Part shown: positions 5,284-60,842 of the stretch, piece after piece
Layout of the letters: every line of letters starts with the position of its first letter
Numbering within the stretch: position 1 is the stretch's first letter
IMG/VR virus record: IMGVR_UViG_3300045988_183451
Length of the DNA: 64,000 nt
DNA from: a virus
Direction: 5' to 3' (one strand)
The notes under the pieces: model-generated
What the model saw: the letters and a program-made list of their open reading frames with translations, nothing else
Database searches by the model: none
Told to the model about the DNA's origin: nothing
Made by a program: the position numbers and the translations under genes

Positions 5284-5293
5284 ACACTATTAT
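5284..5293 (+). promoter_or_regulatory. conserved ACACTATTAT promoter-like motif
   Basis: cttACACTATTATataagga, about 95 nt upstream of ATG 5389. Confidence 0.4.
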
Positions 5294-5388
5294 ATAAGGA
5301 TAATATTTTTGATTTTTAATTGCATAAAAAAAATTTTATAAAAAGAATGATTTATTAATTTTTGTATGTTATAATGGAGGAAAAGTTT

Positions 5389-6216
5389 ATGTTAGGAAGT
5401 TGGGAGACTAAGCTTAATAAAAAATATATAAAAGAGGTCAATATGAATTTAGATACAATATTCAATAAGATTAATAAAAAAAACAAAATATTTTCATTAA
5501 ATCCTAATTTTTCTACTATTAGATATATAAATGAAGAAGAGTACAACAATGAAATATATGAATATGTCGAACCTATTTTTTATGAAGAAGGTGGTTCAGA
5601 ATATAAAGAAAATAGTCCAAAGTTTATAATAATTTCTGCACCAGGAGCTACAGGGAAAACAGCTTTAGCTAAACATATTTGTTACACATATAATGGAATA
5701 TATTGGGATTTACCAGATACAAAAGTAGCGGAATATAGTTTTCAGGGAACAATTATGCAGGCTGTAGGAAGTGACAAGATAAGTTCTTTTATTCAAAGTT
5801 TAGTTGAAGGCTCTAGTTTTTTAGTAGTTGATGCTTTTGATGAAGCTGAAACTGGTTCTGGAAGAACTGGAATAGAATTCTTTTTAAGGGATTTTAATAA
5901 TATTACAGTCAATAATAAAGATATTTGTGCTGTTTTATTAGCAAGAACAGAGAGTGCCTTATTTATAAAAAAATATTTTGAAGACAACAATGTTGCTTAC
6001 AATCATTATGAAGTAAGTTATTTTGAAGAAGCTAATGCAAAAACATATATAAAAAATGGGTTAAAAAAGCGTAATATTCCGATTACTGATATTGTAGATG
6101 AATGTATAGAAGCTCAATTTAAAGAGATAAAAAGAATTTTAATGAATAAAAATACAAGTTCTTTTTTAGGTTATGCCCCTGTATTAAATGCTTTATCAAC
6201 ATCATATGATGAATAA
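5389..6216 (+). CDS. P-loop NTPase (Walker A GATGKT, Walker B VVDAFDE)
   Basis: IIISAPGATGKTALAKHI and FLVVDAFDEAE motifs; GGAGG SD 8 nt upstream of ATG 5389 (ORF-track TTG at 5362 less likely). Confidence 0.6.
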   Translation: MLGSWETKLNKKYIKEVNMNLDTIFNKINKKNKIFSLNPNFSTIRYINEEEYNNEIYEYVEPIFYEEGGSEYKENSPKFIIISAPGATGKTALAKHICYTYNGIYWDLPDTKVAEYSFQGTIMQAVGSDKISSFIQSLVEGSSFLVVDAFDEAETGSGRTGIEFFLRDFNNITVNNKDICAVLLARTESALFIKKYFEDNNVAYNHYEVSYFEEANAKTYIKNGLKKRNIPITDIVDECIEAQFKEIKRILMNKNTSSFLGYAPVLNALSTSYDE

Positions 6217-6225
6217 AGAAATACG

Positions 6226-7524
6226 TTGAATTTATTAAAAAATACTTCAAATTCTGAAAATAATTGTAGTTTATTAAAGAAAATAATGGATTGTTTATTA
6301 ATAAGAGAACGTGAAAAATTTATTAGGTCTTTGAAAATAAAATTACCGAATATTGCAAATTTTTCAGATGACATTTATTCACCAAAAGAACAGATTTTGA
6401 GAATTTTTGGTCAGATTATGTATAATGATAGTACATTTTTTATTGATACGAACTCATATAAGAGTATTCCTTCACAGTATTATGATGAATACTTAGAAGC
6501 TATCAATGCTCAATTACCTCAGCATCCATTTATAAAATGTAAAGGTGATAGTGATATAAGATATGATTTTACAGGTATAGTATTTAGTGATTATGTTGTA
6601 TCTAATATATTATCATTAGAAGATTTTAAAGATTTTGCAAGAGAATATATTTCTGATAAGAAATATAACCCTTCGCCATTATTAATAGAATTTTATAGTA
6701 TTTTTTCAAATAATAGTGTTTCTGGAAAAGATATTGCTCTTATGTATAATTCATTAAAAGCTCATACCCAGACAGGAGATAAATCATTAATTTATATCAA
6801 TGGAGATAAAGAAGAATGTTCTGTTGAGTTTGTTCTTGAAAGAGATAATAAGAAATATCTTTTAATAGAGTTTATGCTTAATGATATAAAAGAAGGTATT
6901 TATATAAATCAGTTGTCTAATTGTTATATAGACGTAGAAGCTGATGTTTATATAGGTACAGCAGATGGTGAAGCCCGTATATATAATTCAACAATTAATT
7001 GTAGTAAAATAGTATGGTGTGGTAATTTTGTATCAATAGAGGCATATTCTCCGGGAGAATGTTCATTAACTTGTAATGAAATGATGTATATTACACAAAA
7101 TATTCCTAAATTTGAAATAAAGATAGACGATAGTAAGAATTTTAAAGTTTATTGCGACTCTTTAAAAGGATATTTTAAGCTTTTACCATATTATGCAAAA
7201 GAAATTAATAATGATGATGCAGATGATTTTATTGTATTTTCAAATGTCGTTAGAAGAATTTTTAGTTGTTTACGGTCACATAGTAAAGATGCTCCAGCAA
7301 GAAAAATGGACTTTATTAATAACAGAATTATAAATAAAAATGAGAAAAAAGAAAAAATTTTGAATTTTCTTTTGGAACGAAATATTTTATATACAGATGA
7401 ACAGGATTGGCTATATAAATTAAAAACAGATGAATTATCAACATATTCTATAAAATGGAATAGTGTTCGTGAAGGAGACTTTAATTCCTTAAAAATATTA
7501 TATAACGAATATATAACAATATAA
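6226..7524 (+). CDS. hypothetical protein; same frame as the upstream ATPase ORF, separated only by TAA 6214-6216 (possibly one interrupted gene)
   Basis: ORF track TTG start, no convincing SD; frame identity with 5389..6216. Confidence 0.4.
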   Translation: MNLLKNTSNSENNCSLLKKIMDCLLIREREKFIRSLKIKLPNIANFSDDIYSPKEQILRIFGQIMYNDSTFFIDTNSYKSIPSQYYDEYLEAINAQLPQHPFIKCKGDSDIRYDFTGIVFSDYVVSNILSLEDFKDFAREYISDKKYNPSPLLIEFYSIFSNNSVSGKDIALMYNSLKAHTQTGDKSLIYINGDKEECSVEFVLERDNKKYLLIEFMLNDIKEGIYINQLSNCYIDVEADVYIGTADGEARIYNSTINCSKIVWCGNFVSIEAYSPGECSLTCNEMMYITQNIPKFEIKIDDSKNFKVYCDSLKGYFKLLPYYAKEINNDDADDFIVFSNVVRRIFSCLRSHSKDAPARKMDFINNRIINKNEKKEKILNFLLERNILYTDEQDWLYKLKTDELSTYSIKWNSVREGDFNSLKILYNEYITI

Positions 7525-7532
7525 ACATATAA

Positions 7533-7572
7533 ACAGCTACTACAAATAAAAGTGGCTGTTTATTTTTTTATT
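7533..7572 (+). terminator. rho-independent terminator
   Basis: acagctac...gtggctgt stem (one G-U) then tttatttttttattt. Confidence 0.55.
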
Positions 7573-7614
7573 TATTTTAAGTATAAAAAATAATCATTTT
7601 TTTAAAAGAAATTC

Positions 7615-7624
7615 ACACTATTAT
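7615..7624 (+). promoter_or_regulatory. conserved ACACTATTAT promoter-like motif
   Basis: attcACACTATTATagatag, 46 nt upstream of ATG 7670. Confidence 0.45.
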
Positions 7625-7669
7625 AGATAGTTTTATATAAACAATATAAAAGATGTGAAAGGTAAAAAA

Positions 7670-9274
7670 ATGGATATTTTAGAAATAAAAGAAAATAATA
7701 AAAAAATAAAAGAGATTGATAATTTAATTAACACCTATTCATTAAGTAAAGATTTAGGAATACGTCTTTATTACGTTCCTGATAAATACTCAAATGATGA
7801 TAAAGATTATATTGCAATGAAGGTAAATGATAATTTCTATAAAATACCTATGGTAAGATATAATGAAAATCCACTATATTTATTAAATATTATTACAAGA
7901 GATATTTGCAATATTCATTTATTAGAAGAGCTTACAGACACTAAGGTTATAAATGCAATTATAAGTATTTATAAAAAACAAGAATCGTTGTATGATGCTT
8001 TACAATATAAAAAGTGTGAAAGAGATTTGAGTGAAATTAAAGATATATTAGATGATGTTTTAGAACATATCACATTGCCAGCAAGAAGTAATAAAGATGG
8101 TTTTTACGATAGAGAAAAAATAGATGCTATTAAAAGTTATATATCTAAGAATAGTGTTTTTAAACCAGTTTATGAAAACGAACATTGTATTATATTTGGA
8201 AAAAGAATGCCTAAAGATACTGAAAATATATTAGTAAGTAGCCATTCAGATATTGTAAAAGGGATAACTGAAGTAAGTAGTAAATATAAGGATGGATTTT
8301 ATCATGGTACTTATGATAATTTGGGAACTAATGCAGCTTCTGTATGTATTATGTGTATGGATGGGAATAATTTGCCAGACAATGTATTTTTTGCTTTTAC
8401 TGCTGATGAAGAAACAGGTAGATGTTTAGGTGCTAAATCTGCTTATCAATTTATAGATAGAAATTCAAAATATCCAACATTATGTGTATCTTTAGATGTA
8501 ACGGATGAAGGATATGATAATAATAAATTGTGTTCAATAGAAGGACTACATGCTGATAATGATATTAAAAGTAAAATCGCAGATAGTATGATGATAACTG
8601 AAGGAGAAGAACAATCATTTTGTGTTATAAAAGCAAAACACAAAGATAATTCTCCTTTTAATAAAGATTATATTGATGGAAATTATACTGTTTTTGATGA
8701 AGGTGTTTATTATGGTCAGACTTTAAACCAAAATGCATTAAGCTTTTGTTTACCTTCTGATGGAAGTATGCATAGTAATTCAGGATTAGATGTAAAAGAA
8801 GGTGTGTTTATAGGATATATTTTGTCTCTTAATACTTTTATACATGAATACACTAATACTAAAAACTTTGAAATTGAAGATATAAAAGAATATAAAGACT
8901 ATCTTGTAAATAAAGCAAAAGAAACTAAGAAAGTCTATGCTTTTGCTAATCCTAATTATAGACCTGATTTTAATTATGCGCTAGATGATTATGATTATTA
9001 TGAAGAAGATGAAGATTCATATATGGACTCTTTTAGTATTGCTGAATTATATGGTATTGATTTAGATGAAAAAGGGAAAATACCTTCAGATAATATACCA
9101 TATGAATTAGAATCAACATTATCAGAACTTGCAGAAGGATATGATGCAACTGAAATATATGAATATTTAGCAGATATGGATTGTGAATTTGGGGGAATTG
9201 TACCTGAAGAAGTTTTAGTTCCGATTTTTAATAAGTGTCACGAACAGGAAGAGGAATTAGATTATACATCTTAA
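7670..9274 (+). CDS. protein with M42/M20-family metallopeptidase-like metal-binding motifs, acidic C-terminus
   Basis: HSDIV ... YDNLGTNAA ... DEETGRCLGAKSA resemble the HxD / D / EE metal ligands of M42/M20/M28 peptidases; ATG 7670 preferred over track GTG 7655. Confidence 0.5.
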   Translation: MDILEIKENNKKIKEIDNLINTYSLSKDLGIRLYYVPDKYSNDDKDYIAMKVNDNFYKIPMVRYNENPLYLLNIITRDICNIHLLEELTDTKVINAIISIYKKQESLYDALQYKKCERDLSEIKDILDDVLEHITLPARSNKDGFYDREKIDAIKSYISKNSVFKPVYENEHCIIFGKRMPKDTENILVSSHSDIVKGITEVSSKYKDGFYHGTYDNLGTNAASVCIMCMDGNNLPDNVFFAFTADEETGRCLGAKSAYQFIDRNSKYPTLCVSLDVTDEGYDNNKLCSIEGLHADNDIKSKIADSMMITEGEEQSFCVIKAKHKDNSPFNKDYIDGNYTVFDEGVYYGQTLNQNALSFCLPSDGSMHSNSGLDVKEGVFIGYILSLNTFIHEYTNTKNFEIEDIKEYKDYLVNKAKETKKVYAFANPNYRPDFNYALDDYDYYEEDEDSYMDSFSIAELYGIDLDEKGKIPSDNIPYELESTLSELAEGYDATEIYEYLADMDCEFGGIVPEEVLVPIFNKCHEQEEELDYTS

Positions 9275-9335: not shown

Positions 9336-9345
9336 ACACTATTAT
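9336..9345 (+). promoter_or_regulatory. conserved ACACTATTAT promoter-like motif
   Basis: agaaaACACTATTATtatttgaggtga, 20 nt upstream of ATG 9365. Confidence 0.45.
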
Positions 9346-9364
9346 TATTTGAGGTGATTTTTTT

Positions 9365-10240
9365 ATGAGAAAAATAATAAGTAGTTTTGCACAATTATCT
9401 ATTCTGTTATGCTTTATTGTAATTTGTAGTTCAAATAAAATAAATGTATATGCATCAGATGATACACCAACAGTAACACTTGATGCAGGACACGATAGTT
9501 TTCATACAGGGGCTAGTGCTAATAACTTAAATGAAGAAAAACTTAATCTTATAATTACAAATTATTGTAGAGATTATTTAGAGAATAATTCAACAATCAA
9601 GGTCTTTTTATCAAGAGAAAATTTTAATTGTCCTTATCCTGATACACCCTATAAAGATTGCAATTATGAAAGATTAATGAAAGCTAAAGCGTTAGAAACA
9701 GACCTTTTTTATAGTATACATTGTAATTATAACCCTCATAATACTTTAAATGGAGCTAGTGTTATAATTCCTAATACTAATTATAAATCTATTTTTAATA
9801 CAAAAGGATTAAAGATAGCTGATGTCATTAAAACAAATTATGAAAATATTTTACCTGTAACAGAAATCTATACAAGAGATTCAGATGAAGATGAAGAAAC
9901 AATAGATAACTTTTATCCAGATGAAACAAGAGCTGATTATTATAATGTAAATAGAACAAGCAAATATAATGATTTTTTAGGAATTATTGTTGAACACGGA
10001 TTTCTTTCAAACAGTAATGATGCAAATATATTAAGTAATACAGATATGCTAAAGCAATTAGGAGAAGCAGATGCAAAATCTATAATCGAATATTTTGAAA
10101 GTGAAGGTTATGATTGTAGAAAAGAATATATAAAAGATGATAAATCTTTAAAAGAAAATATAATTAATGTTAAGAAAATTTTAATAAAGACTAAAAATCC
10201 TAGTATTACGAAATTTAAATATTTATTAAGTAAAAGATAA
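9365..10240 (+). CDS. secreted N-acetylmuramoyl-L-alanine amidase (Amidase_3 / MurNAc-LAA domain)
   Basis: Signal peptide MRKIISSFAQLSILLCFIVICSSNKINVYA; motifs TLDAGHD, IHCNYN, IVEHGFLSNSNDANIL typical of the Amidase_3 family. Confidence 0.6.
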   Translation: MRKIISSFAQLSILLCFIVICSSNKINVYASDDTPTVTLDAGHDSFHTGASANNLNEEKLNLIITNYCRDYLENNSTIKVFLSRENFNCPYPDTPYKDCNYERLMKAKALETDLFYSIHCNYNPHNTLNGASVIIPNTNYKSIFNTKGLKIADVIKTNYENILPVTEIYTRDSDEDEETIDNFYPDETRADYYNVNRTSKYNDFLGIIVEHGFLSNSNDANILSNTDMLKQLGEADAKSIIEYFESEGYDCRKEYIKDDKSLKENIINVKKILIKTKNPSITKFKYLLSKR

Positions 10241-10272
10241 GGATATTTATTGAGTTTTTTTCTAACATTTGT

Positions 10273-10282
10273 ACACTATTAT
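10273..10282 (+). promoter_or_regulatory. conserved ACACTATTAT promoter-like motif
   Basis: gtACACTATTATtatagatata, 40 nt upstream of ATG 10322. Confidence 0.45.
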
Positions 10283-10321
10283 TATAGATATATATTACAA
10301 TCATAAAAAGGAGTAAAAATA

Positions 10322-12127
10322 ATGAATAAGAGTGAATATGTTTCATATTTATTAGATGATTTAGAAGAATTATTAGCAGATGAAGCTAAAAGTTCATATC
10401 ATTTAAGTGCAGCTAAAACTTTTGATGATGATAAAGACCCTATATTATTAGTGGATTATCCTAGCAGTTCTATGAGAGCTTATGTAATTCCTTATAGTAA
10501 GAGAATTGTAAAGGATGCTAATAATTATAGAGAAATTACAATGAATTTTGTTACTCAGTTGAGAGAGTTAAAAGAAAATATTATTTTAGATATAAATAAT
10601 TTCGAACATGCTCTTAATAATACTAATGATTTTATGAATATTTCAACAAATACAGAAATAGCAATGCCAGCACCAATAGCAAGATTACATTCAGATGAAT
10701 ATTATGAAGAATATGATACAGAAGATTACGCAGAATTTTGTGATACAGTACATGATTGGCTTAGAGATTATGAAGTAGAACATAATTGTGATATTTATGG
10801 TGCTGATTATGGAGCATTATATGATGATTACAATGATAATGATGATAGTTTTTTAGAAACTATGCTTAATAATCTTGATAAATTTGATATAACTTATCAT
10901 ACTGTTTCAGAAGATAGGCAGGAAGAATCTAATAATGCAGTTCAAGACTTAACAAGTACAGAGGAACAAGAAAGTGAAAATCCTTTAGATACTAATGAAA
11001 GAATAGTACTTAATCATACAGAAGATTATTATGATGATTTTGATACAGACGATTATGAAGAATTTAAAAATGCTGTAAATGATTATATTGAAGATTATAA
11101 TAAGACAGTTAGTGAAGATAAAAGAGTTGGTTCTCTTAGTGAGTTTATGTTAGAAGACCTTTATGAAAATGATTATTTAGATAATGATGATTCCTTTTTA
11201 GAAGTTATGGAAGATAATGTTGGAAAGATTGATTTTGAAGCAATAGAACACCACAATTTGATTCCAGATGAAAATGGATATATACCTCATCATGCAAGAA
11301 ATTATTATGAAGATTATGATACAGATTATTTAGATGAATTTACTGAAACAGCTAAAGAGTGGATTGAAGATTATGAACATCTAAATGGAGTTACAGTAAC
11401 AATAGATGAAGATGCATTTGATAAATTAAATGATATTTACCAGGATAATGATTATAGTTTTAATGCTACAATGGTTAATAATATAGGAAAGCTTTTTTAC
11501 ATTACTAATCATCCTGAAGAGTATTATAATAGATTAGATGGAATTATTAATGATGAAGACCATTTTGTTAAAAATGCTAAAGAATGGATTAATGATAATT
11601 CAAAGTATTTAGTTGATTTAGATAAAAATGATATAAACAACATAGATTATGAAGATATTTATGATAATTATTGTAACAATGGTATATCATTTGTAGACAC
11701 AATGCTTAATAGTATGGTTGATTATGGATATTTAAAGGAAGACCCAAGAGAAGGAAGGGTATTTGAAAGTCCTGAAAGACATACTCCTGTTGAGAATATT
11801 GATACTCATATTCAGAATAGAAGAAATACTTTAGAACTTAGAGAACTTTATAATGAGGCAAAGGATTTTGATAATGTTAAGGACAAGGTGAGAAATTTTA
11901 ACCTTAGTGAAAACGATTTAGCTAATCCTAACATTTATCATAATGATGATGGTGTCGGTCTTATTATTATTTTCGATGAAAATACCAAATTAAAAGTATC
12001 GAATAATCTGTTTGATAAGTGGGTAACTGATTACTTTGTGGATTACATCGCTGATTGCGTAATAGAAAACGAAAGAAGAGAAGATACTTTATATTCAGAA
12101 GAAACACAAGATATTTCTTTGGATTAA
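10322..12127 (+). CDS. highly acidic protein with 4-5 tandem repeats of about 100 aa (YY(E/D)(E/D)YDT(E/D)DY(A/E)EF...W(I/L).DYE); candidate DNA mimic
   Basis: Strong SD aaaaaggagtaaaaataATG; internal repeats visible in the translation. Confidence 0.6.
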   Translation: MNKSEYVSYLLDDLEELLADEAKSSYHLSAAKTFDDDKDPILLVDYPSSSMRAYVIPYSKRIVKDANNYREITMNFVTQLRELKENIILDINNFEHALNNTNDFMNISTNTEIAMPAPIARLHSDEYYEEYDTEDYAEFCDTVHDWLRDYEVEHNCDIYGADYGALYDDYNDNDDSFLETMLNNLDKFDITYHTVSEDRQEESNNAVQDLTSTEEQESENPLDTNERIVLNHTEDYYDDFDTDDYEEFKNAVNDYIEDYNKTVSEDKRVGSLSEFMLEDLYENDYLDNDDSFLEVMEDNVGKIDFEAIEHHNLIPDENGYIPHHARNYYEDYDTDYLDEFTETAKEWIEDYEHLNGVTVTIDEDAFDKLNDIYQDNDYSFNATMVNNIGKLFYITNHPEEYYNRLDGIINDEDHFVKNAKEWINDNSKYLVDLDKNDINNIDYEDIYDNYCNNGISFVDTMLNSMVDYGYLKEDPREGRVFESPERHTPVENIDTHIQNRRNTLELRELYNEAKDFDNVKDKVRNFNLSENDLANPNIYHNDDGVGLIIIFDENTKLKVSNNLFDKWVTDYFVDYIADCVIENERREDTLYSEETQDISLD

Positions 12128-12182: not shown

Positions 12183-12191
12183 AATGAAATT

Positions 12192-12219
12192 TTACTTATT
12201 TTAATTTATATTGTATAAT
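12192..12219 (+). promoter_or_regulatory. sigma-A-like promoter (-35 TTTACT, extended -10 TGTATAAT)
   Basis: tttacttattttaatttatatTGtATAAT with about 16 nt spacing, 40 nt upstream of ATG 12262. Confidence 0.3.
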
Positions 12220-13328: not shown

Positions 13329-13338
13329 ACACTATTAT
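13329..13338 (+). promoter_or_regulatory. conserved ACACTATTAT promoter-like motif
   Basis: ggttatcACACTATTATtatatag, 31 nt upstream of ATG 13369. Confidence 0.45.
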
Positions 13339-13368
13339 TATATAGAAAGGTTAATAATAGGTATTTTT

Positions 13369-13581
13369 ATGAAAAGAACACAAGCTATTATTCTATGTGA
13401 TGAAATTTATGATATTTGTCAAAATGATAAAAAAGCTGAAAGTATTGATAAATTGATGGATTTTTTATCTAAAAATAAAATAGTAAAAATAGATAAAACG
13501 CTAGATTATGAATGTAAAGGTCAAATGGATATTACTGACTATCCAGAATATTTGCCTGATGATTACGAAATAGGAGATTAG
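13369..13581 (+). CDS. hypothetical small protein
   Basis: ORF ending TAG, immediately followed by ATG 13584. Confidence 0.45.
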   Translation: MKRTQAIILCDEIYDICQNDKKAESIDKLMDFLSKNKIVKIDKTLDYECKGQMDITDYPEYLPDDYEIGD

Positions 13582-13583
13582 TT

Positions 13584-14657: not shown

Positions 14658-14766
14658 AATATTAACAAAAAGGTAATCTATACTTTTAGATGTAGATTAC
14701 CTTTACTTATATTAAGAAAGTGTATTATAATGATAATATAATACAACGTGATTGGAGATAAGAAAT

Positions 14767-16950: not shown

Positions 16951-17034
16951 AGCTTGTTATTGTGTTAAGATGATTTTTAGTGTATTATACATACATATTA
17001 TATTTAACTTCTATAAAGATAAAGAGGTTGTTTT

Positions 17035-19910: not shown

Positions 19911-20060
19911 CAATATTTATAAGCTCTTTCTTTAACACAGCAATGTGTTATTGGAAGGGCTTTATTTTTTTGCTTTTTTATATGGACTATTCACTTTTGT
20001 TATTAATAATTCCTTTTTATTTGAACCTTAAAAATAAAATATAAACTTTTTTTAACAATA

Positions 20061-20078
20061 ACACACTACTATATATAG
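20061..20078 (+). promoter_or_regulatory. degenerate variant of the conserved motif (ACACACTACTATATATAG)
   Basis: 60 nt upstream of the 20137 start. Confidence 0.3.
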
Positions 20079-20790: not shown

Positions 20791-20800
20791 TCACTATTAT
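20791..20800 (+). promoter_or_regulatory. conserved CACTATTAT promoter-like motif with no ORF downstream for about 320 nt
   Basis: ataacTCACTATTATattataat; the downstream region contains a tRNA-like minihelix. Confidence 0.4.
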
Positions 20801-20930
20801 ATTATAATCATTAATTTTTTCTTTTCGTTTATATTAATGGTTATTTATTTAAGTCTTATCTTAAATAAAACTCCTTTCTTTTGGTATTTGTTAGTAACAA
20901 TCGCTAAAAATAATTAATTTTATTTTTAGC

Positions 20931-25445: not shown

Positions 25446-25455
25446 ACACTATTAT
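25446..25455 (+). promoter_or_regulatory. conserved ACACTATTAT promoter-like motif (second degenerate copy ACACTATTCT at 25489-25498)
   Basis: ttaaACACTATTATatatag; 70 nt upstream of ATG 25525. Confidence 0.45.
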
Positions 25456-25524
25456 ATATAGTATTTTTTTGTAAAAATACACTATTCTTATTATAAAAAA
25501 ATCAATAAAAAGTAAGGAGCAATT

Positions 25525-27639: not shown

Positions 27640-27687
27640 AATTCTTACTCCTTTTTTACATATATATAAGTATAACTTTTATATAAT

Positions 27688-27697
27688 ATAATAGTGA
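27688..27697 (-). promoter_or_regulatory. conserved CACTATTAT motif on the minus strand
   Basis: Reverse complement reads aactCACTATTATattatat; 50 nt upstream of the minus-strand ORF 27493..27639. Confidence 0.4.
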
Positions 27698-29294: not shown

Positions 29295-29328
29295 TACGAT
29301 TATTCCTTTCTAATATGAACTATTAATT

Positions 29329-29338
29329 ATAATAGTGT
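29329..29338 (-). promoter_or_regulatory. conserved ACACTATTAT motif on the minus strand (divergent from the 29398 copy)
   Basis: Reverse complement tttttACACTATTATaattaatag, 35 nt upstream of the minus-strand start 29294. Confidence 0.4.
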
Positions 29339-29397
29339 AAAAAAATAAAGATTTTTGTGTGTTTTTAATTTTTTTTATTGTTTTTTTTAAGTATCTT

Positions 29398-29407
29398 ACA
29401 CTATTAT
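29398..29407 (+). promoter_or_regulatory. conserved ACACTATTAT promoter-like motif
   Basis: gtatcttACACTATTATaaaatgaggtaaataaaaATG; 19 nt upstream of ATG 29426. Confidence 0.45.
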
Positions 29408-29425
29408 AAAATGAGGTAAATAAAA

Positions 29426-30739: not shown

Positions 30740-30896
30740 ATATATTTATCTTTACATCCCATACATATTATTGTAATATAATGTATGTTAGGTGTTAGTA
30801 CAAAAGACTGCTTCTTTTCTAAGGAGGTGGTCTTTTTTTATTCTAAAAAAAAATCAATAAAAAATTCTAAAAATCTATTATTTTTTTTACTTTTCC

Positions 30897-30906
30897 ACAC
30901 TATTTT
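30897..30906 (+). promoter_or_regulatory. degenerate variant of the conserved motif (ACACTATTTTTA)
   Basis: ttttccACACTATTtttatataa, 31 nt upstream of 30937. Confidence 0.3.
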
Positions 30907-30936
30907 TATATAAACAAAAAAAGAAAGGAGTTAATT

Positions 30937-32899: not shown

Positions 32900-32909
32900 A
32901 CACTATTAT
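32900..32909 (+). promoter_or_regulatory. conserved ACACTATTAT promoter-like motif
   Basis: gaattttACACACTATTATatatataa. Confidence 0.45.
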
Positions 32910-32973
32910 ATATATAATTTTTTGAAGATTAATAATAGGAAAGGAAAAGCTATTTAGATGAAAACTATATCTA

Positions 32974-33950: not shown

Positions 33951-34838
33951 ATGAGAGATTGGATAAAAAATATTCATACTGTTGATAAGACTTGTGTGAA
34001 TTCTGAAGGAGAATATTATAAATACACAGAATTTGATAGAAAACCAATATCTTTATATATCGTTGTAACAAGAGATTGTAATGCTAGATGTCCTTTTTGT
34101 GAATATAGAGGGAAAACCGAAAAAATTGACATCAGTAAATTTGAGGAAATTTTTATTGAGTTAAGTAAATATTATGATATTACAACAGTTCATTTTACAG
34201 GTGGAGAACCTACCTTAGAATTAGATACAATTAATGCGTTAAGTAAAACTATAAAAGAAATATCTCCTTTATACAAAACAAGTGTTAATACTAATGGAAT
34301 ATTTTTAAATGAATTGTCTAATATAGATACAATAGATAATATTGCTTTAAGCAGACACACTATTATAGATAAAGATAATTTTGATATTTTTAGAACTAAT
34401 AATATTGCTACATATGAAGACATTTATAATAATAATCATAAGGAAAAAATCCATTTGAGTTGTAATCTTATAAGAGGATATATAGATGGTAGTGATAAAA
34501 TATTAGAATATCTTGAAATGGCATCTAAATTAGATATAAATGATGTAGGTTTTGTTAGTCTTATGGATATAAATGATTATTGTGAAGAAAATTTTGTAGA
34601 CTTTAGTAATATAATTCCAAAGGAAAATAACTTTTTTAATAAAACAAGAGATTATAGGTGTATTAATAATAAGAATGTAATTACTTGTAAGTGTGAAAAT
34701 TATCTTTATAGAGCTAAAAATATGAATTTTGTATCAATGTATCATAGATATGTTATTAAGAATAATGAAAAAGCAGATTTTCTTGTTTATGAAAACAATC
34801 ATTTAAAACAAGGATTCAATGGAAATATTATTATATAG
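33951..34838 (+). CDS. radical SAM enzyme (MoaA/SPASM-like class)
   Basis: CNARCPFC Cx3Cx2C motif in VVTRDCNARCPFCEY; HFTGGEPTL SAM-binding glycine motif; C-terminal Cys cluster CINNKNVITCKC; SD aataggagttctatattATG. Confidence 0.65.
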   Translation: MRDWIKNIHTVDKTCVNSEGEYYKYTEFDRKPISLYIVVTRDCNARCPFCEYRGKTEKIDISKFEEIFIELSKYYDITTVHFTGGEPTLELDTINALSKTIKEISPLYKTSVNTNGIFLNELSNIDTIDNIALSRHTIIDKDNFDIFRTNNIATYEDIYNNNHKEKIHLSCNLIRGYIDGSDKILEYLEMASKLDINDVGFVSLMDINDYCEENFVDFSNIIPKENNFFNKTRDYRCINNKNVITCKCENYLYRAKNMNFVSMYHRYVIKNNEKADFLVYENNHLKQGFNGNIII

Positions 34839-35846: not shown

Positions 35847-35909
35847 TTAATAATATTTATAAAAAAGGTGCTAAGTGAAATTATTTAGTATCTTTTTTTA
35901 ATGTCTATT

Positions 35910-35919
35910 GCACTATTAT
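35910..35919 (+). promoter_or_regulatory. conserved CACTATTAT promoter-like motif
   Basis: tctattgCACTATTATattataaagataaaaaggagtcgttaaaagATG. Confidence 0.45.
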
Positions 35920-35949
35920 ATTATAAAGATAAAAAGGAGTCGTTAAAAG

Positions 35950-38590: not shown

Positions 38591-38629
38591 AGAGCTTATT
38601 TTTATATTAAAAAATAGGCTCTTTTTTTA
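38591..38629 (+). terminator. rho-independent terminator
   Basis: agagcttat...ataggctct stem then ttttttt. Confidence 0.55.
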
Positions 38630-38638
38630 TACTCTGAT

Positions 38639-38648
38639 ACACTATTAT
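38639..38648 (+). promoter_or_regulatory. conserved ACACTATTAT promoter-like motif
   Basis: ctctgatACACTATTATattataaaag; 50 nt upstream of ATG 38698. Confidence 0.45.
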
Positions 38649-38697
38649 ATTATAAAAGATATTTATCGTTTTTTTAAAATGGAAAGGAAAATACAAT

Positions 38698-42469: not shown

Positions 42470-42531
42470 TTACAATGCATTTTTAGAAAGGGATTATTAT
42501 TAAAAATAATCTCTTTTTTTTATATCTTAAT

Positions 42532-42541
42532 ACACTATTAT
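42532..42541 (+). promoter_or_regulatory. conserved ACACTATTAT promoter-like motif
   Basis: tcttaatACACTATTATtaaaagatg. Confidence 0.45.
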
Positions 42542-42578
42542 TAAAAGATGAAAAACTTATTTAAGGAGAAGTTAAGAT

Positions 42579-45099: not shown

Positions 45100-45204
45100 A
45101 TTATAAAATAAGATAAATAGTTTGAGATTATTTTTCATAACAGATAAGTGACTGATAAAATACATAAAAGGCGTATTAGCGATGGCATTTTTTTTTATTT
45201 TATT

Positions 45205-45214
45205 ACACTATTAT
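45205..45214 (+). promoter_or_regulatory. conserved ACACTATTAT promoter-like motif
   Basis: ttttattACACTATTATatatagacg. Confidence 0.45.
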
Positions 45215-45303
45215 ATATAGACGATAAAGAATAAAGCTGTTAAAATAGAAAGTATTATTAGACTAACAACAATGAATTTTAACTTTTCTTATGAGGTGAT
45301 ATT

Positions 45304-47986: not shown

Positions 47987-48075
47987 TAAGTTAATTATAA
48001 AAAAATCAAATAATAATAAAAGGTGATAAAGAGAAGCTTAAATTCAAGGTTTCTCTTTATTTTTTTACTCTTTTC

Positions 48076-48085
48076 ACACTATTAT
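48076..48085 (+). promoter_or_regulatory. conserved ACACTATTAT promoter-like motif
   Basis: ttttcACACTATTATaaatataagtaaaagaaaaggagttaataaaTTG. Confidence 0.45.
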
Positions 48086-48116
48086 AAATATAAGTAAAAG
48101 AAAAGGAGTTAATAAA

Positions 48117-49610: not shown

Positions 49611-49614
49611 TATA

Positions 49615-50544: not shown

Positions 50545-50596
50545 TTTTGAAGCTGGTGTATATAGTGTATACATCAGCTTTTATTTTTACTTTCAT

Positions 50597-50606
50597 ACAC
50601 TATTAT
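50597..50606 (+). promoter_or_regulatory. conserved ACACTATTAT promoter-like motif
   Basis: tttcatACACTATTATtataaag. Confidence 0.45.
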
Positions 50607-50644
50607 TATAAAGATATAAATTTGAAAAATGAAAGGTAAAAGTA

Positions 50645-50791
50645 ATGTTTGGTAATATTTTATATATTTTATTAATGTTATCTTTAATTTTTTTTATTAT
50701 AAAAGGTATTAAAGATAAGGATATTATTATTTGCTTGTTTAATATAATGATAGCCTTTATGATAAGCGTGATATATTTTTATACATTATAA
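50645..50791 (+). CDS. small 48-aa membrane protein
   Basis: SD gaaaggtaaaagtaATG; two hydrophobic helices; below the track cutoff. Confidence 0.35.
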   Translation: MFGNILYILLMLSLIFFIIKGIKDKDIIICLFNIMIAFMISVIYFYTL

Positions 50792-50831
50792 ATAGGAATA
50801 AATATAACAATAAAAGAGGTAAGTAAATCGT

Positions 50832-51416: not shown

Positions 51417-51418
51417 TT

Positions 51419-51658
51419 ATGAAAAATAAAAATGGCATTAAAATTAAATTCAATAAACACAATAAATATGGAAATGAACCTTGTTGTTGTGAAAAAGGAT
51501 ATTTAACTAAGTTTGGTTCTTCAACATTATTTTGTTTCATATGTAATTTATTTTGTTGTAGGAAATTATTTAAGACAGAAAGCTTTTGTAAAAAATATGG
51601 ATGGAATAAAACTTGTAGAACTTGTCAACAAAAAGGTGATTATAAGTTACTTGAATAA
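51419..51658 (+). CDS. small Cys-rich protein (10 Cys in 79 aa)
   Basis: EPCCCEKGY...LFCFICNLFCCRKL...CRTCQQKG. Confidence 0.45.
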   Translation: MKNKNGIKIKFNKHNKYGNEPCCCEKGYLTKFGSSTLFCFICNLFCCRKLFKTESFCKKYGWNKTCRTCQQKGDYKLLE

Positions 51659-51912: not shown

Positions 51913-52221
51913 AAAATACAAACAGCAAAATTCATTTTTTCTATAAGCAAAATCTTCTACCATCTATTTAAAACAATACAAATAATATAATTTTTCTTTT
52001 ATGCTTCTTTATATTGATTATATCAATTTCCCCCAATATCCTCATAATTATGTATTAAAAAATCTAATTGTAAAAACTAAAAGGTTAAGACAGTAGTTTA
52101 TACATTTTTCTACTCCCTTTGTGTAATAAATATTATTAAAACTCTATCCACCTTTAATCAAAAATTTTCTAAAAACTTTCAAAAATTCTTATTTTTTATA
52201 CCTCTTTATTTTTATTTTACC

Positions 52222-52231
52222 ACACTATTAT
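52222..52231 (+). promoter_or_regulatory. conserved ACACTATTAT promoter-like motif
   Basis: ttttaccACACTATTATtttataacc. Confidence 0.45.
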
Positions 52232-52274
52232 TTTATAACCAAAAATTGTGAACAAAAGAAAGAAGGAAATTCAT

Positions 52275-56360: not shown

Positions 56361-56391
56361 TAACTCTTTTTTGTTATTTTTTTACTTTTTA

Positions 56392-56401
56392 ACACTATTA
56401 T
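56392..56401 (+). promoter_or_regulatory. conserved ACACTATTAT promoter-like motif
   Basis: ctttttaACACTATTATtataaaaaaacagaaaaggagtttgaaaatatATG. Confidence 0.45.
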
Positions 56402-56433
56402 TATAAAAAAACAGAAAAGGAGTTTGAAAATAT

Positions 56434-56508: not shown

Positions 56509-56541
56509 TAAAATAACAAAATATTATTTTTTTATAATCCT

Positions 56542-56551
56542 ACACTATTAT
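56542..56551 (+). promoter_or_regulatory. conserved ACACTATTAT promoter-like motif
   Basis: aatcctACACTATTATatgtataat. Confidence 0.45.
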
Positions 56552-56629
56552 ATGTATAATAAACAATTCTACTTTCATAGAATGGAATTTTGTTAGTAAA
56601 GAGTAAAGATAAGTAAAAGGAGAAATAAT

Positions 56630-57034
56630 ATGGATATTTTAAATTTTGAGGACATAATAACACTAATTATATTATGTGCTATACCGCTTTTTTTAATAGT
56701 ATCATCTGTATTTAACTGTAAAATATTACCAGGTATCTTTATCTGCATAATTCTAATATCAATATTAGTAGTAATATCTTCTGAAGCATTATTAGACAAT
56801 GCAGTTCCAACAGAAAATAGAACTGAAATACAGGAAATAATAGAACAAAAATCGACAAGTCAAAACTTTAATATAAGAGTGACATATAAAGACTTATCAG
56901 GTAACACAAAGGAAGCACTTGTTATAGATGCAAAGACCTCTGATGATGATATTTCTTATTCATATATAGAGACTAAAACCTATAAATATGGTTTCTTGTA
57001 TAAAGATGTAAATACATTATATTTTAGAAGGTGA
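56630..57034 (+). CDS. membrane protein
   Basis: SD aaaaggagaaataatATG; two TM helices. Confidence 0.45.
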   Translation: MDILNFEDIITLIILCAIPLFLIVSSVFNCKILPGIFICIILISILVVISSEALLDNAVPTENRTEIQEIIEQKSTSQNFNIRVTYKDLSGNTKEALVIDAKTSDDDISYSYIETKTYKYGFLYKDVNTLYFRR

Positions 57035-57039
57035 TTTTA

Positions 57040-57708
57040 ATGAAAAATATAAGTAAAAAGAAATCATTCTGGAAGGAATTTTTTAATGAGTGTTATGGAA
57101 TGATAGTACTCGGAGCAATTACGATATATATTGTTTTATCTGCCATTGTAGGAAATTTGATATTGCCATGTATAAATAATGGAGAAGCAATAAATCCGTG
57201 TATAGAAGATGTAAGCGGTAAGTTTACATTATTTGTAATAAAAACAATCATAGGTGGTTTGTATTTATTTGGTGTTATTTTCATACTATTAATTGCTTTT
57301 TCTATTATAGGCATAATTGTAATAAAATTAGTAACTGGAATAACGCATATACTAGCTGTAAAACGATATACATACCTACCATTAACAATAGATGAAGTAA
57401 AAGAAGCTATAAATGTAGGATTATTTGAAGATACTCCTGAAAGCTATACAGATTATCTTGCAAAACAGATGAAGTATTTTGATGGCAGTGTAACCTTTTC
57501 AGTTGATGATATGAAAATGATAATAAAAACAATAAAAGCAATATGGAATCAATCATTTAAGATTGATAAAGATTTTCTTATCAGAAATAAAATAGAAAGT
57601 TATCATCAGCTTCCATTTGGACTTAAGGATGACAGAGCCGATTTATTTTGCAAATTAGAGAAAAACCAAACAGTATCTTTTGATATGAACGACGTTTATT
57701 TCATTTAG
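57040..57708 (+). CDS. membrane protein, KKSFW-family paralogue
   Basis: MKNISKKKSFWKEFFNECYGMIVL...; SD agaaggtgattttaATG (track start 57031 is 9 nt earlier); ends TAG. Confidence 0.5.
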   Translation: MKNISKKKSFWKEFFNECYGMIVLGAITIYIVLSAIVGNLILPCINNGEAINPCIEDVSGKFTLFVIKTIIGGLYLFGVIFILLIAFSIIGIIVIKLVTGITHILAVKRYTYLPLTIDEVKEAINVGLFEDTPESYTDYLAKQMKYFDGSVTFSVDDMKMIIKTIKAIWNQSFKIDKDFLIRNKIESYHQLPFGLKDDRADLFCKLEKNQTVSFDMNDVYFI

Positions 57709-57885
57709 AACATCAGGTGAAAAGCTGCTTGCATTAAGCGTGAAATTAATGAGTTTTCACAAGAAGCCACAGAAGAATAACAATATCTGGTTTTTGTTAT
57801 TGTTTTTTATACCTCATAAATAATAAAATATTATTTTTTAATAAGAGCTGTATTAAAAAACAGTTCTTATTTTTTTATGTTTTTT

Positions 57886-57895
57886 ACACTATTAT
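57886..57895 (+). promoter_or_regulatory. conserved ACACTATTAT promoter-like motif
   Basis: tttttACACTATTATttataaatgg. Confidence 0.45.
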
Positions 57896-57945
57896 TTATA
57901 AATGGAGAAGAAATAAATAATATAAATAAAGAGGAAATAAATAAT

Positions 57946-58151: not shown

Positions 58152-59024
58152 ATGGATAATACAGCGTTAGCACAAAGAATGAAAAGATATTATGAAGAAG
58201 TACCCAAGACAAGATTAATAAGGAAAATACCTGTTTGTATAAGACTTGATGGAAAAGCATTTCATACATTTTTAAAAGGATTTCAGAAGCCATTTGATGA
58301 TATATTTATTAAGACAATGCAGGATACTATGAAATATTTGTGTCAGAACATACAAGGATGTGTATTGGGATATACTCAGTCAGATGAAATCAGTCTAATA
58401 CTTATAGATTATCAAAAACTTACAACAAGTGCTTGGTTTGATTATGAGGTTCAGAAAATATGTAGTGTTTCAGCTAGTATGGCAACAATGGCATTTAATA
58501 GAGCTTTTGAAAAGAATGTAGAAGCTGAAAGTCATGTATTTACTGATGAGTGGTTAGATAATGGAGAATATAATCCTAATTATAAGAGCAAAGAATTAGA
58601 AGACTTATGGTTAACACATAAAAAGGCTTTAGAAAAAGGAGCAATGTTTGATAGTAGATGTTTTAATATACCAAAGGAAGATGTTGCTAATTTAATATTC
58701 TGGAGACAGTTTGATGCTAGTAAGAATTCAGTACAAATGGTAGGGCAGGCTAATTTTTCACATAAAGAATTGCAGAATAAATCTAGTAATGATATTCAAG
58801 ATATGCTTATGATTCAGAAAGGTATTAACTGGAATGATTTACCGACTTATCAGAAGAGAGGAAGTTGTTGTGTAAAAAAGGAAATTGAAAATAAATCAAC
58901 TGGATATAATGGTGAAATCAGAGCTATTGAATATAGAACAGAATGGATTATAGATAAAAATATTCCTATATTCAAAGGAGAAAATAGAAGATATATAAAT
59001 GAATTAATACTTTTTAAGGAGTAA
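58152..59024 (+). CDS. Thg1-like protein (tRNA-His guanylyltransferase family, 3'-5' nucleotidyltransferase)
   Basis: CIRLDGKAFHTF (compare Thg1 VVRLDGRNFHRF), GYTQSDEISLIL (compare AYGQSDEYSFVF), FDSRCFNIP...IFWRQFDASKNS (compare FDGRVVVYP...LSWRQADCHINN), PTYQKRGSCC (compare PMYRKGTVL). Confidence 0.7.
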   Translation: MDNTALAQRMKRYYEEVPKTRLIRKIPVCIRLDGKAFHTFLKGFQKPFDDIFIKTMQDTMKYLCQNIQGCVLGYTQSDEISLILIDYQKLTTSAWFDYEVQKICSVSASMATMAFNRAFEKNVEAESHVFTDEWLDNGEYNPNYKSKELEDLWLTHKKALEKGAMFDSRCFNIPKEDVANLIFWRQFDASKNSVQMVGQANFSHKELQNKSSNDIQDMLMIQKGINWNDLPTYQKRGSCCVKKEIENKSTGYNGEIRAIEYRTEWIIDKNIPIFKGENRRYINELILFKE

Positions 59025-59257: not shown

Positions 59258-59686
59258 ATGGGAAGTTATACAAATTATAGTATGGAAATAATAGATATTG
59301 ATAATAAAGGATATAATGCATACAAAATTGCAAAATATATGTTAGAAAAAAATAATGAAGCTGAAAAATATTATGCTTTTTATAATAGTTTAGAAAATTT
59401 TATAGAAACTGTAGACCCTACATCAAAAATAGATTATGAATTATATCTTGATGATGATGGTGAAACTAAATGGTATGATAATGAAGAAGATATGTTAGAG
59501 TTATCAAAAGAATTTCCTGATATACTTTTTAAATTACACGGAGAAGGCGAAAGAAATGAAGATATATGGGATAAGTATTTTATGAATGGAAAAATGCAAT
59601 ATTGTCCAGCAGAAATATATATTCCAGAATTCGATAGAAACAAATTAAAGGAAATAGATAAAGATAATATAGAAATGGATAGGTAA
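59258..59686 (+). CDS. hypothetical acidic protein
   Basis: SD aaagggagaattttagatATG. Confidence 0.45.
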   Translation: MGSYTNYSMEIIDIDNKGYNAYKIAKYMLEKNNEAEKYYAFYNSLENFIETVDPTSKIDYELYLDDDGETKWYDNEEDMLELSKEFPDILFKLHGEGERNEDIWDKYFMNGKMQYCPAEIYIPEFDRNKLKEIDKDNIEMDR

Positions 59687-59691
59687 AGATT

Positions 59692-59952
59692 ATGGAAAAA
59701 AGGACAAATGTATATTTAGCAGAGATAGCTTTTTTAATATTAAGAAATATTCCTAATGGATATTCAAAAGAAGAGGAAGAATATTTTACAAAAGGCGTTA
59801 TATCAATGTCAAATGTTTTATCTAAGTCATTAGATGCTTTGAAAGAAAATTCTAATATAGGAATGGAAGATATAGAAGAAATTATTAAAAAAGAGATTAA
59901 TAATATAGAGGAAATATATAATGAAAGAACAGAAGAACAAAGAGATATGTAG
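59692..59952 (+). CDS. hypothetical small protein
   Basis: Ends TAG. Confidence 0.4.
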   Translation: MEKRTNVYLAEIAFLILRNIPNGYSKEEEEYFTKGVISMSNVLSKSLDALKENSNIGMEDIEEIIKKEINNIEEIYNERTEEQRDM

Positions 59953-60391
59953 GGATATAAGAATAATAAGGTTTAAGTTAAAGGACTATAAAAGTATAAT
60001 TCAAATGTCTAGGAAGCTGGATGACTTACATATAAAGAATAGACCAGATATATTCACAGATGGTTCTATGTTAGGTAATTTTATACTATATTCTGAATAT
60101 TTCTTTAAAGATACTATATTTGTTGCTATTAAAGATAATTGTGTAGTAGGAATGGTTGTAGGTGAGAAATTAAGTGATTTCTGTTATCTGATAAAGGATA
60201 TATTTGCGGAAGAAGAATACAGACATATGGGAATAGGAAAAAGACTAATTGAAGCTATTGAAAATTATGCTAGGAAAAAAGATTATGAGAGGGTTATATT
60301 AAACTGTTATGAATTCAATAACAATGCTAAAGGCTTCTATGAAAATGAAGGATTTAGTTCATATGTAATAACCTATGAAAAGAAATTATAA
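59921..60391 (+). CDS. GNAT-family N-acetyltransferase
   Basis: VVGMVVGEK...EEEYRHMGIGKRLIEAIENYARKKDYERVILNCYEFNNNAKGFYENEGF acetyl-CoA binding motif. Confidence 0.65.
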   Translation: MKEQKNKEICRDIRIIRFKLKDYKSIIQMSRKLDDLHIKNRPDIFTDGSMLGNFILYSEYFFKDTIFVAIKDNCVVGMVVGEKLSDFCYLIKDIFAEEEYRHMGIGKRLIEAIENYARKKDYERVILNCYEFNNNAKGFYENEGFSSYVITYEKKL

Positions 60392-60431
60392 TAGGTTAAT
60401 AAGAAATACTGCTTGTTTTTTACACTTTGAT

Positions 60432-60441
60432 ACACTATTAT
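60432..60441 (+). promoter_or_regulatory. conserved ACACTATTAT promoter-like motif
   Basis: ctttgatACACTATTATaattgtaag. Confidence 0.45.
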
Positions 60442-60480
60442 AATTGTAAGTAAAATAATTACAATAGTGAGGTATCGTGT

Positions 60481-60759
60481 ATGAGAAGAGATGAAGGAAA
60501 ATTATCAAAGATAATAAAGAAAGCATTATTAATAATAATTCTATTTTATATAGCAGGATTATTATTTGCAGACCTGATAGCCAATACAGGAATTGAGTAT
60601 TTAGGAATATTTTTTGTTGTAAGTGGAATTATTTTAACATATTTATTATATAAATACATACCTAGAGTAGTCTGGTATATAAAAACAGCTCCACAAAGAA
60701 GAAGAGAAAGAACTGAAATGAAAAAGTTTATGAAAGATTATAAAAGAAATTATAAGTAA
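60481..60759 (+). CDS. small membrane protein with basic C-terminus
   Basis: Two TM helices then RRRERTEMKKFMKDYKRNYK. Confidence 0.45.
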   Translation: MRRDEGKLSKIIKKALLIIILFYIAGLLFADLIANTGIEYLGIFFVVSGIILTYLLYKYIPRVVWYIKTAPQRRRERTEMKKFMKDYKRNYK

Positions 60760-60832
60760 TTATAAAACTAAATAAATATACAATTAAAGGGTACTAAATG
60801 AATTGAGTTTAGTATCTTTTTTTATATTTTAT

Positions 60833-60842
60833 ACACTATTAT
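60833..60842 (+). promoter_or_regulatory. conserved ACACTATTAT promoter-like motif
   Basis: attttatACACTATTATatatagatattaaaag. Confidence 0.45.

Follow-up and report, generated by a model that had tools for sequence, protein, structure and literature searches.

Which signal starts transcription of the operons on a 64,000-nt stretch of the IMG/VR virus record IMGVR_UViG_3300045988_183451 (the window), and which protein reads it? The question arose from a short, T-preceded core for which a preliminary description of this DNA had reported about 25 promoter-like copies. The carrier is a giant, mostly uncharacterised conjugative plasmid-like element, and the core, the 10-base sequence ACACTATTAT, is very probably a promoter. 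The reading favoured here, that it forms the core of the element's standard promoter and is read via a dedicated sigma-type factor, was given a probability of roughly 0.5.

Recurrence and placement of the motif

Exact matches to ACACTATTAT numbered 22 in the window (20 on the plus and 2 on the minus strand), against 0.66 expected from dinucleotide-preserving shuffles, none of 100 of which reached 22; with one mismatch allowed, 48 matches were counted against 17.8 expected. It was the commonest plus-strand 10-mer despite a C content of only 9.4% on that strand. A position matrix was built from the 20 intergenic exact copies, and scanning the window with it gave 25 convincing sites, namely these 20 copies and five one-mismatch variants, all between genes. 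The earlier figure of about 25 was thereby confirmed, and most of the earlier coordinates were exact (5284, 7615, 9336, 10273, 13329, 25446, 29398, 32900, 38639, 42532, 45205, 48076, 50597, 52222, 56392, 56542, 57886, 60432, 60833 and 29329(-)). The sites 20791 (TCAC..), 35910 (GCAC..) and 27688(-) (TCAC..), listed earlier as copies, are one-mismatch variants; among the degenerate copies 30897 was placed correctly, and 20061 and 25489 were corrected to 20063 and 25479. Two exact copies had been overlooked, 6710(-) and 34357(+), both within open reading frames (ORFs) and without the upstream context.

Intergenic DNA makes up 14.3% of the window and holds 20 of the 22 exact copies (P = 2e-15); a copy is present in 25 of the ~46 intergenic gaps of at least 40 nt, with a distance from core to start codon of mostly 16-90 nt. 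As had been proposed, each intergenic copy is co-oriented with the next gene: 82 of the 86 called genes lie on the plus strand, and the minus-strand copies 29329 and 27688 precede the only minus-strand genes, the former heading the block 29294-27736 and the latter a 48-aa ORF with a good Shine-Dalgarno (SD) sequence. The suggested divergent promoter region 29329/29398 was recovered as a back-to-back pair. All copies are given below, with gene assignments predicted from position and strand.

5267..5299 (+): copy with core 5284-5293, directly after the terminator hairpin 5227-5259; for 5362-6216
7597..7630 (+): copy with core 7615-7624; for 7655-9274 (M20-like protein)
9336..9351 (+): copy without T-run, core 9336-9345, SD GAGGTG; for 9365-10240 (Amidase_3)
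10255..10288 (+): copy with core 10273-10282; for 10322-12127 (acidic repeat protein)
13329..13344 (+): copy with core 13329-13338; for 13369-14657
20045..20078 (+): variant copy ACACTACTAT, core 20063-20072, identical in relative L126; for 20137-20664 (YdjM)
20791..20806 (+): variant copy TCACTATTAT with upstream A-run, identical in L126; heads the structured non-coding stretch 20800-21030
25446..25488 (+): copy plus weaker tandem copy ACACTATTCT, cores 25446-25455 and 25479-25488; for 25525-26802 (PIF1-type helicase)
27682..27697 (-): variant copy TCACTATTAT; for the 48-aa ORF 27639-27493
29323..29355 (-): copy with core 29329-29338; for 29294-27736 (97 aa, RuvC-like, helix-turn-helix (HTH), 73 aa)
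29381..29413 (+): copy with core 29398-29407, divergent with 29329(-), SD GAGGT; for 29426-29698
30880..30912 (+): variant copy ACACTATTTT, core 30897-30906; for 30937-31188 and the flotillin-like gene 31217-32791
32900..32915 (+): copy without T-run; for 32974-33426
35893..35925 (+): variant copy GCACTATTAT after a strong hairpin; for 35950-36747 (radical SAM)
38622..38654 (+): copy after a terminator hairpin; for 38698-39045
42514..42547 (+): copy after a terminator hairpin; for the operon from ~42570/42710
45188..45220 (+): copy; for 45304-45483
48060..48091 (+): copy after a terminator hairpin; for 48117-50544
50580..50612 (+): copy after a terminator hairpin; for 50645-51658
52205..52237 (+): copy; for a small ORF and the 921-aa PIF1-type helicase gene 52454-55219
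56377..56407 (+): copy; for a small ORF from ~56424
56527..56557 (+): copy; for 56630-57708
57870..57901 (+): copy after a terminator hairpin; for the operon including the Thg1-like gene 58152-59024
60416..60447 (+): copy; for 60481-60759
60817..60848 (+): copy after a terminator hairpin; for 60889-61515
6710..6719 (-): exact 10-mer in an ORF, antisense, upstream context absent; probably non-functional
34357..34366 (+): exact 10-mer in the radical-SAM ORF 33951-34838, no T-run or A-run, low matrix score; a chance copy or a weak internal promoter

The tandem copies at 25446-25488 lie 33 nt apart, and the second has decayed to ATACTATTTT in relative L126.

Site anatomy

Numbered from the first A of the core, the matrix of the 20 copies has T at -17..-10, A at -8 (17/20), TTT at -6..-4, T at -1, the invariant 10-mer and then four A/T positions; the conserved information is limited to the 10-bp core and T-richness, and the T-run noted in the preliminary description is phase-locked at -17..-10. 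TATTAT was found in all copies. No -35 hexamer (TTGACA-like) was present 16-18 nt upstream of the -10, where the matrix has only the T-run. TTGnnC words seen in relatives of 45% guanine-plus-cytosine (GC) content are doubtful as -35 elements (n = 7), lying 22-23 nt upstream of TATT and thus at the wrong spacing. An A-run replaces the T-run at five copies (20791, 25446, 27688, L001:9170 and L001:4439).

Upstream hairpins were sought in the 45 nt ending just inside the T-run, and hairpins of -8 kcal/mol or better were present at 9 of 25 sites, compared with 4% of random 45-mers (P = 3e-7); at other copies the T-run stands without a hairpin. Where a hairpin is present, the T-run doubles as terminator U-tract and as upstream edge of the motif, which starts ~9 nt past it. 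The hairpin sequences are unrelated from copy to copy, and similarity between copies ends within ~30 nt. Because the motif begins ~9 nt after a terminator, a transcribed leader element is excluded and no room is left for another promoter; this adjacency is the main argument that the motif itself is the start signal. Downstream, 12 of 25 sites have their first G 5-7 nt past the core (P = 0.003 in comparison with other TATTAT sites), and in both of the shortest leaders (9336 and 29398) the SD lies exactly 6 nt after the core. The promoter-like character claimed at the outset was thus borne out by copies that are intergenic, strand-matched, set between terminator and SD, and kept at orthologous sites.

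Terminator hairpin, T-run and core are packed into units of ~60 nt at 5227-5293, 35860-35919, 38590-38648 and 42495-42541, and likewise at 48040-48085, 50560-50606, 57850-57895 and 60795-60842. In a relative of 33% GC, the T-run directly abuts the core (L233:103 and L233:893).

Relatives and promoter types

PrgI and a CD1110-family VirB4 (a Firmicutes-type conjugation system) are encoded ~0.5-3.4 kb upstream of the window, and the motif continues beyond the window on both sides. More than 100 relatives of VirB4 were found (50-97% identity); many of their contigs measure 200-460 kb, one is of 2.46 Mb and one is an IMG/VR contig of 244 kb. Close matches in GTDB were limited to three, all on Lachnospiraceae contigs from metagenome-assembled genomes. 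The common gene order at VirB4 is DnaE or VirD4, T2SSE ATPase, PrgI, VirB4 and a ~250-aa protein, followed by a 1200-1600-aa protein, an M20-like protein and then an amidase or NT5C. Three promoter types were distinguished upstream of genes in these relatives:

Type 1: RCACTAyT, in L128/L210 (33% GC), L316 (31%), L127 (45%) and L131 (47%)
Type 2: T-run followed by (T/A)CATATA, in L129, L130, L132 and L317
Type 3: TTTTTTCGTATATAAT, in L318, with 8 copies in 22 kb

The elements bearing RCACTAyT span 31-47% GC with VirB4 66-72% identical, and most type-1 relatives have an A-tract at -12..-8; in type 3, five of the eight copies end in a perfect TATAAT. When aligned on TAT, all three types show a T-rich tract, a lineage-specific element of 3-4 nt (ACAC, TCA/ACA or TCG), TAT(A/T), followed after 5-9 nt by a cluster of purines. 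VirB4 identity, computed over 381 alignment columns common to ten sequences, ranged from 72 to 91% among type-1 elements and from 66 to 74% when types 1 and 2 were compared.

Conservation at orthologous sites was seen through a 732-aa protein that has a single relative (70% identity) in 5.8 billion clusters: the contig of this relative keeps the copies orthologous to 20063, 20791 and 25446, variant spellings included, a weak form of footprinting with intergenic regions 82-94% identical overall. In 77 ordinary Firmicutes loci from chromosomes and integrative and conjugative elements (Clostridia/Bacilli, 1.34 Mb), CACTATT was not enriched (50/26 observed, 62/110 expected), so the motif belongs to the element family and not to Clostridia/Bacilli generally. 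A scan of IMG/VR for TTTTTTN{7,12}ACACTATTAT gave only single chance matches among the matches listed; motif-based fishing in public collections is therefore too unspecific.

The locus of L127 (ENA ERZ27273429 contig_583_polypolish, 2,464,116 bp; VirB4 66% identical, 45% GC, RCACTATT promoters) lies at 1.534-1.557 Mb of a long-read contig, which could reflect integration into a chromosome or a join made in assembly. In the 244-kb relative (L320), a 150-aa protein has >160 homologues on viral contigs of 30-60 kb, those listed coming mostly from the same metagenome (3300045988), which suggests gene exchange with phages.

Proposed mechanism and its weak points

Under the favoured reading, bacterial RNA polymerase would start ~5-8 nt downstream of the core. 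The promoter would consist of an upstream T-rich tract (here the T-run at -17..-10, often also the U-tract of the preceding terminator), ACAC as short specificity element, TATTAT as A/T-rich melting element and a preferred purine 5-7 nt past the latter. With no -35 hexamer, recognition would proceed via a -10-class, extended -10-like element and depend on a dedicated sigma-type factor, most probably element-encoded. Each small operon would form a self-contained unit in which the genes stand between their promoter and a terminator, the latter lying right against the promoter that follows.

An element-encoded reader was preferred because ten bases are invariant, because ACAC sits where Firmicutes sigma-A prefers TRTG, and because the core persists across elements of 25-47% GC, with the specificity element switching between lineages. 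The exchange of 3-4 nt (RCAC, TCA/ACA, TCG) within a constant architecture suggests that factor and promoter may co-evolve. A further reason is the report of a sigma factor in Inocles: an element-encoded factor, annotated RpoS, was described in these giant plasmid-like elements (PMC12340149), which match the present one in GC, size and VirB4 features, and gives an independent hint for the reader here, the link being unproven.

Several points weigh against this reading. No sigma or RNA polymerase gene was found in ~84 kb of the element (window and flanks; contig 291 kb) or in ~62 kb of the 244-kb relative, and in eight other relatives no sigma was found in the ~20 kb surrounding VirB4. The sequence leaves the -10 register ambiguous: with TATTAT as hexamer the last T is not conserved in relatives, and with CACTAT as hexamer the other two motif types lose the A at -11. 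The start site is predicted from the position of the G or purine, the promoter types follow VirB4 similarity only roughly, and the link to Inocles and to the Hodor elements is by resemblance only.

In ~260 kb of family sequence no Sigma70 domain and no RpoS/RpoD similarity was detected; E. coli RpoS and RpoD gave no match at E<=10 to six-frame ORFs of the family loci (local phmmer), no sigma was found in L319 and L320 (local phmmer) or in L316-L318 (precomputed Pfam), and Pfam and PHROGs searches of the window proteins revealed no reader. The preliminary description had likewise seen no single-subunit RNA polymerase or sigma gene in the window, and none was found in the flanks either. The 244-kb relative was walked from 223 kb back to 161 kb with no sigma found, the genes there encoding RadC, GGDEF, a Mob_Pre relaxase, PIN, IS3, Fic, topoisomerase, RecJ and YpsA. 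A scan of IMG/VR with RpoS/RpoD profiles was swamped by unrelated matches. Three proteins were considered as readers and rejected: the 1592-aa protein has no DxDxD motif, DFDTD/DYDTD in the 601-aa protein is part of a four-fold acidic repeat, and the 732-aa protein, with its single relative, is absent from the syntenic position in relatives.

A bolder view, put forward tentatively and judged unlikely, is that the family has its own transcription code, with a -35-less promoter at nearly every operon, a specificity element switched at least twice (ACAC, ACA/TCA, TCG) and a reader unrecognised by standard sigma or RNA polymerase profiles. Such a reader could be a minimal sigma of the gp55 kind, a sigma that has diverged strongly or a novel polymerase subunit, and its invisibility to profiles would account for the failure to detect one in ~146 kb from two elements.

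Alternative explanations

Host sigma-A holoenzyme might read TATTAT as its -10, with the T-rich upstream DNA, possibly together with an element activator, offsetting the missing -35 and with ACAC conserved for some secondary reason. TATTAT agrees with TATAAT in 5 of 6 bases, 5 of 8 copies in the CGTATATAAT-type relative contain a perfect TATAAT, the purine peak lies at the distance expected for a bacterial holoenzyme, and no element-encoded sigma was found in the sequence scanned. This explanation was nevertheless considered doubtful: ten bases invariant in 20 copies are far above the norm of sigma-A promoters, Firmicutes sigma-A prefers TRTG upstream of the -10, the place taken here by the invariant ACAC, and there is no -35. 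CACTAyT is also kept in elements of 25-47% GC, presumably of different hosts, is not enriched in the 1.34 Mb of Clostridia/Bacilli loci, and ordinary TTGnnA-17-TATAAT sites precede other genes of the window. The lead given in the preliminary description, a T7/SP6-like single-subunit RNA polymerase whose gene would lie elsewhere on the element, was thought improbable. The SP6 promoter consensus is ATTTAGGTGACACTATAGAAGAG, and ACACTAT is identical to its positions -8 to -2; conservation is very high, as in phage-polymerase promoters, the downstream sequence is purine-rich, and the sequence read covers a minor part of the element (~84 kb of 291 kb). However, no such gene lies in these ~84 kb or in ~62 kb of a relative, the conserved purine follows 5-7 nt past the core and not directly after TATA, and the equivalents of -17..-9 are only T-rich, with no contiguous consensus of ~23 bp from -17 to +6. 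In relatives the same slot is taken by CGTATATAAT or ACATATA, which align as a -10 region and do not fit the specificity region of a T7-type promoter. The seven bases in common are genuine, but as the sole resemblance between the sequences they leave the link to a single-subunit polymerase unsupported, and the likeness looks superficial.

The motif could also be the operator of a global element-encoded regulator overlapping ordinary promoters, like the KorA/KorB sites on IncP plasmids. Many identical copies stand at operon heads, and Xre-type HTH genes are present at 27960-28238(-) and 36841-37305; yet ACACTATTAT has no dyad symmetry and is strictly coupled in orientation to the gene, no separate promoter fits the space between terminator and motif or, in short leaders, between motif and SD, and the only -10-like sequence lies in the motif itself, which makes an operator very unlikely. 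Scarcely credible is a signal acting in the RNA, as a processing site or leader element, or a dispersed repeat with no part in initiation. Orientation coupling and location in 5' regions would suit it, but copies directly after terminators are not transcribed from upstream, similarity is confined to ~30 nt with hairpin sequences differing between copies, and the distance to the start codon varies from 16 to ~90 nt. For the dispersed repeat, named in the preliminary description as a case that would speak against a promoter, the unrelated flanks and hairpins and the strict co-orientation with genes gave a negative answer.

A second, sigma-A-like promoter class had also been proposed. Example sites were seen, namely TTGTAA-17-TATAAT in 36748-36840, before the Xre-type HTH regulator gene 36841-37305, TTTACT-17-TATAAT at 12191-12219, and GTGTATTATA at 14720 (14720-14731) and 16980 (16980-16990), with GTG in place of the CAC of the main motif; several motif-less gaps have ordinary-looking sites behind terminators. 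These are only a handful, and a generic sigma-70 scan is uninformative at 25% GC (158 sites against 164 expected, i.e. at chance level), so that a host-read promoter class for regulators is plausible but thin as a prediction from such sites.

Comparison with known systems

The closest functional analogues of the motif, as read by a dedicated sigma-type factor, are phage-sigma promoters (T4 gp55, SPO1 gp28) and plasmid sigmas (pBS32 SigN, TcdR family). T4 late promoters (TATAAATA, gp55) and SPO1 middle/late promoters (gp28, gp33/34) are read by a phage sigma on host core polymerase. Shared with the window are a short, near-invariant, element-specific consensus centred on -10, many copies heading their own operons in insulation from host promoters and, for T4 late promoters, the absence of a -35. 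The carrier here is, in contrast, conjugative and plasmid-like, with another consensus and lineage-specific variants in the family, and no gp55- or gp28-like gene was found in the element sequence scanned. SigN of B. subtilis pBS32 and the TcdR/BotR/UviA group of clostridial toxin/bacteriocin loci are plasmid-encoded sigma factors, in which, as proposed here, a Firmicutes extrachromosomal element supplies a sigma for its own genes. Those factors control few promoters with -35 and -10, whereas most operons of a ~300-kb element would be concerned here.

Firmicutes extended -10 promoters (TRTGnTATAAT) are read by sigma-A region 3.0 and resemble the present sites in having a -10 hexamer with a conserved upstream element of 3-4 nt that can dispense with a -35. 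Here the upstream element is ACAC (TCA/ACA or TCG in relatives) and not TRTG, adjoins the hexamer and is invariant, which points to a different reader. With SP6/T7 promoters the motif shares ACACTAT, high copy-to-copy conservation and the occurrence of promoter variants between related elements, but the upstream region, the likely start position and the forms in relatives do not match.

As a whole, the copies represent a real, well-defined promoter family, new as a variant of a known promoter kind, whose reader was not found in the sequence scanned. A near-invariant promoter at most operons gives an operon map of such elements from sequence alone, and the motif is a signature for spotting family members and sub-lineages in metagenomes. 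Promoter type set against candidate factor offers a handle for finding the protein that separates plasmid from host transcription in a phage-like manner; if the factor is element-encoded, matched promoter/factor variants would be candidate orthogonal expression parts for Clostridia and Bacilli.

The carrier element

The window (25% GC, strong positive GC skew) is part of the ENA metagenome contig ERZ27229528:k119_91722 (291,454 bp), where it occupies about 131.9-195.9 kb, and a near-identical stretch was found on a 407-kb scaffold (ERZ28638715 scaffold_9). Most window proteins are without any family. Those recognised include two PIF1/RecD-like helicases, three radical-SAM proteins, Thg1-like, flotillin-like, Amidase_3, NT5C and T2SSE ATPase proteins, an IrrE/M78 peptidase, a RuvC-like protein, Xre-type HTH proteins and GNAT. 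No match was obtained for 20 kb of the window in a phage collection (megablast), for the 1592-aa protein in PLSDB plasmids (tblastn) or for three large proteins among PDB sequences; the 1592-aa protein had no relatives in GTDB genomes (species representatives) and the 921-aa helicase none in IMG/VR. Scans of the window for tRNA and Rfam families returned nothing, and a full-text literature search for the 10-mer gave only primer-like chance matches.

The element belongs to a large, mostly unannotated family that resembles two sets of giant plasmid-like elements known from human-associated Bacillota, the 'Inocle' and 'Hodor' megaplasmids, whose proteins are mostly unknown (PMC12340149, PMC12934698). 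Inocles are circular, of 245-395 kb, with VirB4/VirD4, DNA polymerase III, RecJ and RecD-like proteins, a GC content of 24% in Inocle-delta and the marker gene InoC (~454 aa, N-terminal Replic_Relax PF13814) (PMC12340149). Hodors are of ~357 kb and 45-47% GC, with Rep_3 and an HD-type MOBH relaxase with helicase beside VirB4/VirD4 (PMC12934698). Inocle-like features here are the contig of 291,454 bp, the 25% GC of the window and the CD1110-type VirB4; Hodor-like are the relatives L129 and L317, with HD-domain genes beside the type IV secretion cluster, and L127, L130 and L131 with 45-47% GC. Further points in common, partly seen in relatives, are VirB4/VirD4, DNA polymerase III, RecJ and RecD-like helicases and the predominance of unknown proteins. 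InoC, Rep_3 and a MOBH relaxase were not located in the ~84 kb read of this element, no gene of the window and flanks matched PF13814, and neither circularity nor VirD4 was seen for the contig. Inocles, Hodors and relatives from gut and oral Bacillota were described only in 2025-2026, with >90% of genes without known function (PMC12340149, PMC12934698), and promoters receive no mention in the main text of either paper (PMC12340149, PMC12934698).

Further observations in the window

The gene-free gap 20665-21116 (452 nt) contains a structured stretch at 20800-21030 (+), downstream of the TCACTATTAT variant, with a minimum free energy of -50.7 kcal/mol (z = -5.7). It holds a tRNA-like T-arm (CTAGGTTCGATTCCTAG) between possible acceptor-like stem halves CTGCATCA...TGGTGCAG and hardly differs in L126, a diverged relative; neither ARAGORN nor Rfam gave a match. 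The stretch possibly represents a small RNA or a tRNA-like element, of note given the Thg1-like gene 58152-59024 on the same element.

The 601-aa protein encoded at 10322-12127 (+) is very acidic, with about four repeats of ~90-95 aa (...EDYYxDFDTDDYEEFxxAVxDWIEDYE...) and no family match; a DNA-mimic or anti-restriction-like role is speculation. Three radical-SAM genes (33951-34838, 35950-36747 and 43699-44496) lie within 11 kb amid small unknown ORFs and may form a peptide- or nucleotide-modification cluster. At the window end, 62854-64000 looks ORF-free because an IS605-family TnpB gene (OrfB_IS605 / Cas12f-like) runs from ~63288 past 64000 (from L004/L005:10930-12165).

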